A program made the position numbers. Positions 19,901 through 22,900 of a stretch of 29,119 nt of DNA are shown piece by piece; within the stretch, counting starts at the first letter, position 1, and each line of letters opens with the position of its first letter. The DNA is taken from IMG/VR virus record IMGVR_UViG_2872152978_000003; one strand, written 5' to 3'. This DNA is from a virus (Duplodnaviria; Heunggongvirae; Uroviricota; Caudoviricetes).

Positions 19901-22900
19901 GGCTTTGAAGGCTGCTGACTTGGAATTGCCACCAGCACGTTTGGGATATTCCTGCCAGGCCTGTTCAAATTCCGGTGAATATTCCTGTCTGGCAGAACGC
20001 GCTGGTGCAGACGCGTCAGCGGATGCGCCAATAGTTGATTCATTGACTGGTTCTTTGACTGGTTCAAAAGAGTGACTGGTTCTGGGTGAATCTCCTGCAC
20101 TACCCCCTGGTGCAACTCCTACACCACCTGGTGAATTTGCTGCACTAGGTAGTGAATTATTTGCACTACCACCTGGTGAATCTTTTGCATCATCAAGACG
20201 AAGAAGATAAATATTGCTCGAGTTCCCTTTTTCACCTTTCCGGGAAACTTTTTTTACCAGTCCAGATTCACAAAGAGCCGTAATATAATTCATCACAGAA
20301 CGTTTGCTAATCTCGCACTGATCAGCAATATGCTGATAGCTGGGCCAGCACTCGCCCTGATCGCTGGCATTATCAGCCAGCTTAATCAGAACCAGTTTTC
20401 GCAACGGATTTCCCACACGAATTTTCATCGCTTTCACCATCAGCTCCATGCTCATAACACACCTCCCAGGCGTTTAAACATTTTTCCAGACAGAAATACC
20501 GCCAGAGGGTAACTGATGGTGTAGCTACGCCCCTGTAGTTCGCACACGACTTTCTGGCTTTCAGCGTTGACTAGGCAAACCCGCAGAACGTGACCGTTGC
20601 TGGTGGCGAACCACTGCCCCACACGGGGGCAACGGTTGTATCGGTGATACAGGGAATTAACGATGTGGCGGATCATGGACGCACCTCCGCCGTAGTTACG
20701 TATTTAACCGGGCTACCTTTCATTGAGATGGTTTCACACATCTCTGCCGCTTTCAGTTCCGCTGTTTTTCTGGATTTATAGCGACGGTGCCAGACAGATA
20801 CATCCGTGCGAACTGATACATCGTTTCTGTATTCCGTAGTGGAGATGATGATTTCGTAACTAATCATGGGCGAACCTCCTTGTCAGAACCATTCAGCCTG
20901 GAATCAACAAGTGCAGCGCCAAAAACAGCATCACCAACACGGTCGTACAGTTTGCTAGCCAGCGGAGATTCAATGGCCTTAAGCATTGGATAAAGCTGGC
21001 TTGTCCAGATTTGATGGATTTCACGCAAATGCAGGTATACGCCTCTGGCGTTTCGTGCGACAGCTGACATATCAACCGCGTCAGCACCAGATAAATTCTT
21101 CTCCATCTGGTTAAAGGCGTTGATGTATGCCTCTTTGAACCGGGCTGCACGTTTGCCAGTAAAGCCCATAGCAAGGAACGCGAAGCCATCACGGGTGATT
21201 TGATAGCAAGGTAGTTTGCGGCCTGTGCAATCGGTGTAATCACTCACCGAAAAATTGCGGGCAGTGAATGATGCGGAGCATTCAAGCGTGCGGATCTTTT
21301 TCAGTACATCGTCATGACGCTTGGAGAAGAAGTTGGCAACAGCCAGGGATGAAGTAACAGCCTGACCATCAACGATGGCAATTTCAGGTTGAGTGAGGGT
21401 TGGGATCGTAGCCATGATGGCAGCCTCCGTTGACTGTGGAAAACTTCCACCACCGGAGCTGCGAAACTCACTGGTGGCAGACTGAACAGGGTTCGCAGTA
21501 CCGGCGTCAACGGAGACCGGCGAGCCTTTCGGCTCCCCTGCCCAGCCCACCATAATTCTGGCGTGCGTGAGCGCGGACGATAAAAAAGACGCTGGCGCGT
21601 CATATATCGCCGTTGACAATTCCGGGCTGCGACCCCCGGCACCCACTTTATAAGGTGCAGAGACAGTGTAACGTCCCGAAATTGCAGAATCAATATTTGG
21701 TCTTGAAATGATCATATAGCTGCTGATATCTTTAGAACTGTTCTTGGATGTTTCGGAGCCGTTTTATGCGAAACAGCTCCCCGTTATTGATGTTGAGTGA
21801 GCCGGGTTACTCCCGGCTTTTTTTCACCGCTGCCAACCAATAACCTGAAATAACCCCATTTTCGGGTGATACCAGCGAGTCCCTCGCGGTTCTGCTTCCT
21901 CCATAACCCGATAAAAAGCAGCCATAAACGGTTCCACAGCAACAATTGCGCGACGTGACAACAATCCGTCCGGCGTCATGAACTCATGGGTGTCTGTAGG
22001 AATCTGATAGGCGTTCACCAGATTGCGGCATTTATCATCTGACAAACCGGTTTTCGCTTTCAGTTGGCGATATCCGGCATAGCCCTCACGAATAGTGCCC
22101 TTTTTAATTTGCTCGACTGTTTCAGCAACGTGGCTGACTTTTTCTTCCACCTGAGTGATCCGTTTCTGCTGACGAACTGCTTCAAGAGCCATCGCGGCAA
22201 CCATTTCGATTTCGCTCATTGGCTTACGGATCTGTTCTTCCAGTTCGCGCCAGCGATCTACCAGGCGAGCAGTGAATTCAGGACAGAGCTGTGCGACGAC
22301 AATGATGCTGTCGCGCTTACCTTGTTCTCCTTCAAACAGGTAATGCTCATATTGAACTTTAAAACCTAAGTTATTGATTCTTTCGGAAACCTCAATTTGA
22401 GGAGACCGGACAACGCCACCTTTGGCTAATGTTTCAATAGTGCGTTTCACATTGTCATGACGTTTACCCACCAGCTCTGCGATCTCAACGCTGGTCATGG
22501 ATGCTTTGCCGTTAAAAATTGCGGTGTTCATTGTTGGTCTCCTGTGGGCTTGTCATCTTCTGTATTCGCTAGACTTGGGTGTGTATATGGAATGCTCGGA
22601 TCCAGATGACAAAGAATGGCAACATCCTCCGGAACACCTCGCGTTTTCCACTTTCCAACACCTTGACTGCCACGAGGCCTTCCTTTCTTTGGGAACCTGC
22701 GACCAATAGCGGCATTGGTTTTAAATTGAATTTTTAATATTTCATAAAGGGTCATTCTTTAGTCTCACACCAGATACTTTGTTATCCAACGATGTTAACC
22801 GCAAGAATCCAAAGTATCAAGAAATTCTGTTACTTTAGTATCAACAGCCATGAGAGGAGAAGAAAAATGAAGTCTTTAGGTGAACGTCTCATCAACGCAC

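Follow-up and report, generated by a model that had tools for sequence, protein, structure and literature searches.

Here we examine the immunity and early region of a Caudoviricetes virus represented by IMG/VR record IMGVR_UViG_2872152978_000003, whose whole stretch of 29,119 nucleotides is called the window below. Our findings favor a model, which we hold to be about 80% probable, where a standard lambdoid right operator (OR) switch is joined to a mobile RNA-controlled cassette of the P1 immI, P4 immunity, and Gifsy-1 isrK type. The initial annotation had described an atypical immunity region; that description has to be given up, the region being an ordinary lambda-type OR switch with a well-known RNA-controlled module inserted. 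Every feature that it had listed does occur in the sequence where it had been placed, the one adjustment being the internal start, ATG 21415. What looks unusual is a cassette of the C4/CI-IsrK/seqA family in its P4-type form, with a nested open reading frame (ORF) and a Rha-family cargo, lodged in a lambdoid early operon. This operon runs leftward on the minus strand from the intergenic segment 22756-22866, with a plus-strand cI-like repressor gene opposite; it comprises, in order, a 75-amino-acid (aa) ORF, a 235-aa gene, a spacer of 108 bp that holds a plus-strand terminator, a 283-aa ORF, two small ORFs, and, at its end, O-like, DnaC-like, and DnaB-like replication genes. Both Rha units, the Roi/Rha-like gene and the IsrK-C4-Rha cassette, appear to be accessory insertions that separate cro from the replication genes. 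At least 80% of the 3.2-kb region is covered in 136 complete Escherichia coli genomes, and partial matches occur in 1,477.

The IsrK-C4 cassette and its addresses

The GC content reaches 0.60-0.61 over positions 21400-21624, against approximately 0.45-0.52 on both flanks. The initial annotation had correctly located a GC-rich stretch here, open in two minus-strand frames (both are stop-free over 285 nt), but treated it as unexplained; judging from Rfam matches, these 300 bp are two known minus-strand RNA genes, IsrK and C4. The elements of the cassette are the following.

21715-20864, minus strand: 283-aa ORF, an Eta-like extension in frame with a Rha domain, beginning upstream of the isrK promoter (Phage_ASH 60.8 bits over aa 16-111; Phage_pRha 105.7 bits)
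21693-21665, minus strand: predicted internal isrK promoter, read from the sequence, with −35 TTGATT (21693-21688), −10 TACACT (21670-21665), and a 17-nt spacer; start at about 21658
21658-21582, minus strand: IsrK RNA, a putative decoy of the seqA or a1b1 type (Rfam RF01394, 56.4 bits vs. gathering threshold 50)
21632-21627, minus strand: b1 in IsrK, UCGCAG
21617-21610, minus strand: a1 in IsrK, GUCAACGG
21601-21582, minus strand: IsrK intrinsic terminator, a hairpin (21601-21588) followed by T6
21557-21470, minus strand: C4/CI-type antisense RNA (Rfam RF01695, clan CL00128, 78.8 bits vs. gathering threshold 45)
21515-21506, minus strand: C4 loop a', CUCCGUUGAC
21498-21492, minus strand: C4 junction b', CUGCGAA
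21465-21459, minus strand: b2 on the mRNA, UUCGCAG
21434-21425, minus strand: a2 on the mRNA, GUCAACGGAG, covering GGAG of the Shine-Dalgarno sequence of ATG 21415
21415-20864, minus strand: nested 183-aa Rha-family gene, ATG 21415-21413 (Phage_pRha, PF09669, 107 bits; TIGR02681, 103.7 bits vs. 45.95)

The RF01695 match spans the full model (positions 1-87 of 87), and the 3' side of the C4 closing stem carries an invariant CCACC. The same two families also match P4, C4 on the CI RNA and isrK on seqA, as well as isrK/orf45 of Gifsy-1, and the APSE-7 annotation marks both RNAs along with a'/b' elements. On the other side of the balance, the Rfam model RF03163 (c4-a1b1) gives no match in the window even at E ≤ 1, though it does match Gifsy-1.

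For comparison we assembled 80 IMG/VR loci encoding relatives of the nested Rha protein, which yielded 46 distinct cassettes and an alignment of 45 sequences; percentages and pair counts below refer to these 45 variants. The hexamer bases of the isrK promoter, whose counterpart is PisrK of Gifsy-1, are invariant throughout. The C4 elements a' and b' are complementary both to a2 and b2 at the ribosome binding site, where a2 overlaps the Shine-Dalgarno sequence GGAGG (21428-21424), and to a1 and b1 in IsrK. With a':a2 and b':b2 included, 96.8% of the cells of the full structure are paired, against 38-45% when the partners are slid by 1-3 columns, and 26 pairs are changed on both sides. Pairing reaches 99.1% in the a':a2 helix, where 7 of the 10 pairs have changed on both sides, and 94.2% in the main b':b2 helix; a1:a' and b1:b' are paired without exception (100%; 12/14 pairs changed on both sides). 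The 17 pairs of the C4 outer stem are likewise 100% paired, four of them changed on both sides, as are four of the five pairs of hairpin 1. The three copies of each address change together, and approximately 10 a-types and 7 b-types recombine freely into varied combinations; addresses of other variants include CAUGUGCG / CGCACAUG. The variant set is an unusually clean natural series of compensatory mutations for a three-way interaction of C4, target, and decoy. The value of the cassette lies chiefly in this covariation series and in annotation, and current understanding is not overturned.

The minimum free energy fold of the leader pairs a' with a2 and b' with b2 in cis (z = −5.95). This fits what is known of Gifsy-1, where PisrK transcribes the downstream gene but translation of the read-through mRNA requires IsrK provided in trans, a 139-fold effect (Hershko-Shalev et al. 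2016, PMC4825925). The leader fold, the pairing covariation, and the Gifsy-1 precedent together point to ATG 21415 as the regulated start, with C4 as its probable repressor, in cis or in trans, and IsrK as a decoy bearing the same addresses. The doubt that the initial annotation had cast on the true start of the 20864-21715 ORF was well placed, this internal ATG, preceded by GGAGG, opening a 183-aa frame; the second Rha-family gene that it had reported downstream is likewise borne out by the Phage_pRha match.

Tandem arrangements are frequent among the relatives: two or three IsrK-C4-cargo cassettes follow one another in 13 of 60 related loci (L079/L081, L011, L014, L018, L027, L046, L049, L058, L059, L077, L078, and L080), those of L079/L081 lying at 903, 1560, and 2216. 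Co-resident cassettes have different a' loops in 13 of 13 loci, and their b' elements are nearly always different as well, a pattern that suggests selection for orthogonal locks within one prophage. One cassette, at L058:3921-4244, carries a1 and a' of one specificity (CAAUAUAG / CUAUGUUG) and a2 of another (CACCAAAG). It probably arose by recombination, and its C4 would be unable to cover the ribosome binding site of the same cassette via the a contact.

The long reading frame and related systems

The product of the 283-aa ORF is shown as a plain protein by RefSeq and the Prokaryotic Genome Annotation Pipeline (PGAP), by PHROGs, and by Pfam, and in all the E. coli records examined the IsrK and C4 genes inside this ORF are unmarked. 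One could follow these resources and regard the 283-aa ORF as simply the gene, with "Ash" an ordinary domain and the Rfam matches incidental; PGAP indeed calls the 852-nt coding sequence, Phage_ASH scores 60.8 bits, phrog_821 and phrog_995 cover the extension, and the frame is free of stops in relatives. We find this scarcely credible. Codon-position variability is flat in the extension (0.55/0.58/0.57), with no excess at the third position, against 0.62/0.50/0.93 in the Rha body, and what varies there are compensatory base pairs and addresses that change in three-way register. Moreover, a conserved promoter and an intrinsic terminator lie inside the extension, the canonical Shine-Dalgarno sequence and ATG at the domain boundary are the RNA target, and the homologous cassettes of Gifsy-1, APSE-7, and D6 do without the open frame. 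The lack of codon periodicity implies that the amino acid sequence of the extension is not under ordinary selection, and it argues against the Phage_ASH segment as an ordinary protein domain.

The opposite view, that the extension is never translated, its open frame being a by-product of GC-rich structured RNA and the 183-aa protein the only one made, deserves more attention, although we consider it improbable. It accounts for the flat codon variability, for the absence of a recognizable Shine-Dalgarno sequence before ATG 21715 in the window context, and for the second frame that is also open in the window, and it agrees with Gifsy-1, which works with the frame closed. Yet the stop codons of the 46 variants tell the frames apart: that of Rha is stop-free over the 285 nt in 45 of them, whereas the other two contain 2-8 and 0-6 stops, at approximately 20 distinct positions each, the second frame that is open in the window gaining 1-6 stops in relatives. 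Indels in the extension are multiples of three or compensated. In addition, an in-frame ATG recurs 99-101 codons upstream in at least five different contexts, several of them unrelated, and in several with a strong Shine-Dalgarno sequence (AAGGAGGT in some) or in overlap with the preceding stop codon, and P4 Eta is reported to be translated from an upstream promoter (summarized in PMC10111431, citing Forti 1999). The stop census and the recurrent upstream ATG also argue against the Phage_ASH match and the long ORF as a pure artefact of translating an RNA gene.

A stop-free frame combined with flat codon variability leads us to propose that selection preserves translatability of the frame, and that the RNA determines which peptide it encodes. 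The long 283-aa form may be made in this phage. That relatives keep the extension translatable speaks for its being translated as part of the Rha protein, one of the outcomes that the initial annotation had set against its own reading, though it is not proof; the missing Shine-Dalgarno sequence and periodicity, and the closed frame of Gifsy-1, APSE-7, and D6, count on the opposite side. The last observation implies that the long frame is not essential to the RNA mechanism and that the window holds a P4-type sub-architecture. Phage_ASH (PF10554) is common to P4 Eta (82 bits), which the extension also matches by BLASTP (6e-11), and the Pfam "Ash protein family" corresponds to the translated seqA/CI (IsrK/C4) segment of Eta-like ORFs. 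A variant form is seen in L009 (2219-2539 and upstream), where the IsrK half is replaced and 246 open codons extend upstream as far as the Roi-like gene's start, so that Roi, C4, and Rha are apparently fused in frame.

Among the closest known systems is P4. There, a long ORF, eta, is described as starting upstream of the constitutive PLE promoter and spanning seqA and CI, Kil being its nested C-terminal part, and translation of eta from the upstream promoter as preventing termination (PMC10111431, citing Forti 1999). Both systems share the two Rfam families (CI RNA and seqA), the Phage_ASH extension, an "...EAAI-MAT..." junction at the nested start, and, as far as that account of P4 goes, a long ORF whose start precedes an internal constitutive promoter, with the nested start just after the RNA target. 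They differ in cargo, a 65-aa Kil in P4 and a Rha-family regulator here; in setting, P4 being a satellite with the RNA as its sole immunity factor and the present element a lambdoid prophage with a protein repressor; and in the long ORF, which in the window lacks both coupling to a preceding gene and a Shine-Dalgarno sequence.

Gifsy-1 likewise has an IsrK with its own promoter and a leaky terminator, a C4-like RNA that corresponds to the orf45/STnc1160 region, an IsrK complementary to the downstream leader, and an AUG at +107, at the 5' end of C4; an RNA of approximately 80 nt is processed from the orf45 region (PMC4825925). Its cassette, however, follows antQ, stop codons close the upstream frame, and the end of orf45 overlaps anrP at an AUGA, whereas here the AUG equivalent to that of orf45 shares the reading frame of the cargo. 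The two systems also carry unrelated cargo proteins: the nested Rha protein, which might have been expected to be a homologue of AnrP, is not related to it in sequence, a mismatch that tells against our model and because of which "antirepressor" is only an analogy. P22_AR_C is matched only below threshold (E = 0.0055), and the PHROG labels read either "transcriptional regulator" or "anti-repressor"; the Rha cargo may act as an antirepressor or regulator.

In P1, the antisense RNA is part of the same transcript as its target, a' and b' pairing with a2 and b2 at the ribosome binding site, with a1 and b1 located upstream; in both P1 and P4, the antisense RNA is excised from the primary transcript by RNase P, and a like excision may occur here, the invariant CCACC of the closing stem being the only hint of it. 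The immI operon of P1 and P7 is given as c4 antisense RNA, icd, and ant (Citron & Schuster 1990, cited in PMC12197685). It shares with the window the placing of antisense RNA and target on one transcript, the two recognition elements, and the alteration of specificity by matched changes. Unlike it, the window has no icd-like coupling gene, carries Rha as cargo and not Ant, and possesses a long nested ORF, a frame that is closed in D6, a P1-like phage. The nested Rha gene sits where kil (P4), icd/ant (P1), and anrP (Gifsy-1) sit, and from the variety of cargo (Kil, Icd/Ant, AnrP, BRO, and Rha) the cassette can be seen as a portable regulator. The window is a case of a lambdoid prophage with a P4/P1-type RNA lock located after cro and before the replication genes.

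Building on the RNA identities, base-pair covariation, conserved internal promoter, open-frame conservation, and Cro fold established here, we propose that in the lysogen the internal promoter (start at about 21658) would make IsrK, mostly stopping at its own terminator, while read-through RNA would carry C4. The a' and b' elements of C4 would pair with a2 and b2 in cis, or in trans after processing, occluding the Shine-Dalgarno sequence of the 183-aa Rha gene and keeping it silent. As IsrK has the same addresses in a1 and b1, it should compete for C4, and an excess of IsrK would unlock translation, as was measured for Gifsy-1. Once the early promoter is on, transcripts started upstream would contain the 283-aa frame from 21715, and ribosomes reading through IsrK and C4 would block RNA folding, pairing, and termination; this read-through step, with its control of termination, would follow the eta/kil logic of P4 and yield an immunity-insensitive, extended Rha protein along with expression of the downstream replication genes. 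A broader reading, which we put forward tentatively and at somewhat below even odds, sees the IsrK-C4 cassette as a portable RNA lock with two independently exchangeable addresses, the same DNA being kept translatable as the N-terminus of the cargo, to which a plus-strand RNA similar to lambda oop (see below) may add a layer. If so, the origin of transcription would decide how the same 285 bp are read, as repressing RNA and decoy from the internal promoter and as protein from the early promoter, and arrays of cassettes would give one prophage several independent switches without cross talk.

The Cro-like protein, operators, and repressor

Upstream of the cassette, the switch would consist of a cI-like repressor opposite a Cro-fold protein, with three TTGATAC-type sites between them:

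22867-23523, plus strand: cI-like repressor gene, 218 aa from ATG 22867 (Pfam HTH_3, 53.7 bits; Peptidase_S24, 78.5 bits)
22756-22866, no strand: OR-like operator/promoter region, a 111-bp intergenic segment delimited from repeats and a promoter scan
22820..22792, minus strand: predicted early promoter of the rightward type, TTGATA-17-TAACAT, from the promoter scan
22755-22528, minus strand: 75-aa Cro-like protein, basic, containing KKGRPRG; predicted all-alpha Cro fold

The initial annotation had read the 75-aa ORF as an AT-hook protein occupying the place of a recognizable Cro with its helix-turn-helix (HTH). The structure model of the protein, however, is a Cro fold (predicted local distance difference test score, pLDDT, 87.8), and its top structural matches are Cro; a Cro fold was among the outcomes that the initial annotation had itself named as refuting its reading. 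An AT-hook was considered and rejected: in the family alignment G25 and R28 alone of the "GRPRG" stretch are invariant, the consensus being KGKPRS with variants such as RGSARS and KGKARG, so that the conserved R-G-R-P core is not a family feature, and in the model the segment forms the loop between HTH helices 2 and 3. The family is well conserved across Enterobacterales (42 clusters). In the loci of six relatives (L087-L092) the gene is divergent from an S24-type repressor gene approximately 105-110 bp away, where called in full, and the 75-aa homologue is followed by the replication genes with no Rha gene between. This conserved divergent position opposite an S24-type repressor identifies the 75-aa protein as the likely Cro of this immunity type; as modeled, it is a Cro-fold protein in the cro position, the first gene of the early operon, divergent across the operators.

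Less favorable to this assignment are the searches by sequence and fold. The 75-aa protein has no match in Pfam, NCBIfam, or PDB sequence and profile searches, the Foldseek E-values are not significant, and hhalign against P22 Cro gives a weak probability of 2.9%; its only PHROG match is to a PHROG of unknown function. The all-alpha Cro proteins of P22, N15, and Xfaso-1 lack its basic insertion of approximately 5-8 residues (PKKGRPRG), which separates the two HTH helices, and the 75-aa protein is not significantly similar in sequence to any Cro family. The family-wide basic loop in the HTH turn comprises approximately 8 residues (residues 21-29, PKKGRPRGS here) and could provide extra DNA contacts.

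The absence of a sequence-family match and the KKGRPRG motif are also what would speak for a truly atypical immunity region, with an AT-hook protein for Cro, Rha-type genes for cII, and a plus-strand small RNA ending at 21825 that is antisense to the GC-rich region; to these can be added that the ORFs examined from cro to the replication genes include none that is cII-like, and that the plus-strand terminator is real. Given the Cro fold and the IsrK and C4 genes, we regard such a region as very unlikely and retain the lambda-type switch with its inserted RNA-controlled module.

The divergence from a cI-like repressor across repeated half-sites, as initially annotated, holds. The intergenic segment contains AGTATCAA twice, 24 bp apart (22813-22820 and 22837-22844), and an inverted copy, GATACTTTG at 22773-22781 versus CAAAGTATC at 22810-18. 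Read in the cro orientation, the repeats are TTGATAC-N4-GTAACA-like sites that flank and overlap the early promoter. A Klebsiella relative, with 72% identity in the small protein, has repeats of TTGATAC too. The repressor start at 22867 coincides with the PGAP start in near-identical E. coli prophages, which are integrated beside yecE/yecN and where the product is labeled "LexA family protein"; from its domains we predict a LexA-type self-cleaving repressor.

The Roi-like gene, the plus-strand terminator, and neighboring genes

Between cro and the cassette lie a further Rha-family gene and signals on the opposite strand:

22531-21824, minus strand: 235-aa Rha/Roi-like regulator (Pfam Phage_pRha, 40.2 bits vs. 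gathering threshold 29.9)
21799-21824, plus strand: intrinsic-terminator-like hairpin from a sequence scan, GAGCCGGG-TTACT-CCCGGCTT followed by a T-run
21703-21732, plus strand: candidate promoter, predicted, TTGAAA-18-TATCTT with TG extension, 9/12 matches

The coupling of the 75-aa ORF to a 235-aa Rha-family gene, proposed at the outset, is supported by this Pfam match and by the TGA of the former, which overlaps the ATG of the latter (ATGA, 22531-22528); an AGGAGA Shine-Dalgarno sequence is also present. The 235-aa protein matches phrog_63, "anti-repressor Ant" (1.5e-48), and is annotated as Roi in phage PhiR49_2, whose cro and cI differ while its Roi-spacer-cassette block is the same. The two Rha-family proteins of the window, in each of which Phage_pRha is the N-terminal domain, are 30% identical over 77 aa, and PDB sequence searches with both returned nothing useful.

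The strand-specific terminator of the initial annotation is likewise present. Its 8-bp stem (6 GC; 21799-21819) is followed by T7 to 21824, the last T already belonging to the stop codon of the 235-aa gene as the first base of its complement, and in the minus-strand RNA no U-tract follows the stem. Sequence identity around the terminator, at least 98.8% in all copies across about 41 loci, makes a covariation test impossible. In L041 (1332-1352), a hairpin and T-run of unrelated sequence occupy the strand opposite the early operon, directly after the Roi-like gene; this shared position and orientation suggest selection for the feature.

The terminator could be the end of an oop-like RNA of approximately 88 nt (21739-21826). 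Its transcription would diverge from that of isrK, and it would be antisense to the early transcript in the spacer that separates Roi from Rha. We consider this possible but doubtful. In its favor are the abutment of a strand-specific terminator on the stop codon of the gene after cro, the equivalent terminator of L041, a promoter-like site with an extended −10, and a fold better than that of shuffled sequences (z = −3.5); a precedent is found in lambda, whose OOP is a 77-nt RNA antisense to cII (PMC12197685). The candidate would share with OOP its small size, its direction against the early operon, and a strong terminator located where the gene that follows cro ends. Nonetheless, promoter-like sites are about as numerous as chance predicts (5 found, 3.4 expected), the near-invariant segment lends no covariation support, and in Rfam the candidate has no match except a sub-threshold one of its terminator to sroD. 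It also departs from OOP in that its promoter is predicted only, its overlap with the Roi-like gene upstream is a mere 1-3 nt, and the two RNAs have no sequence similarity. The candidate overlaps neither IsrK nor C4, and antisense control of the GC-rich stretch would not be its role.

Other elements lie beyond the early region. Just past the repressor gene, an IS3-family-like element occupies 23880-25084 of the window on the minus strand, with an orfA carrying HTH_Tnp_1 and an orfB carrying rve. It truncates the next plus-strand ORF (23627-23905) to 92 aa, compared with an HTH-domain protein of approximately 167 aa in relatives without the insertion sequence. Farther away, at 11855-12385 on the minus strand, a STnc100 small RNA (143 bits) is found beside three tRNA genes. 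In a near-identical RefSeq prophage these are tRNAs for Arg, Arg, and Ile, which adjoin a SASA-family esterase gene and are positioned past the Q antiterminator, WYL, and DNA-methyltransferase genes.

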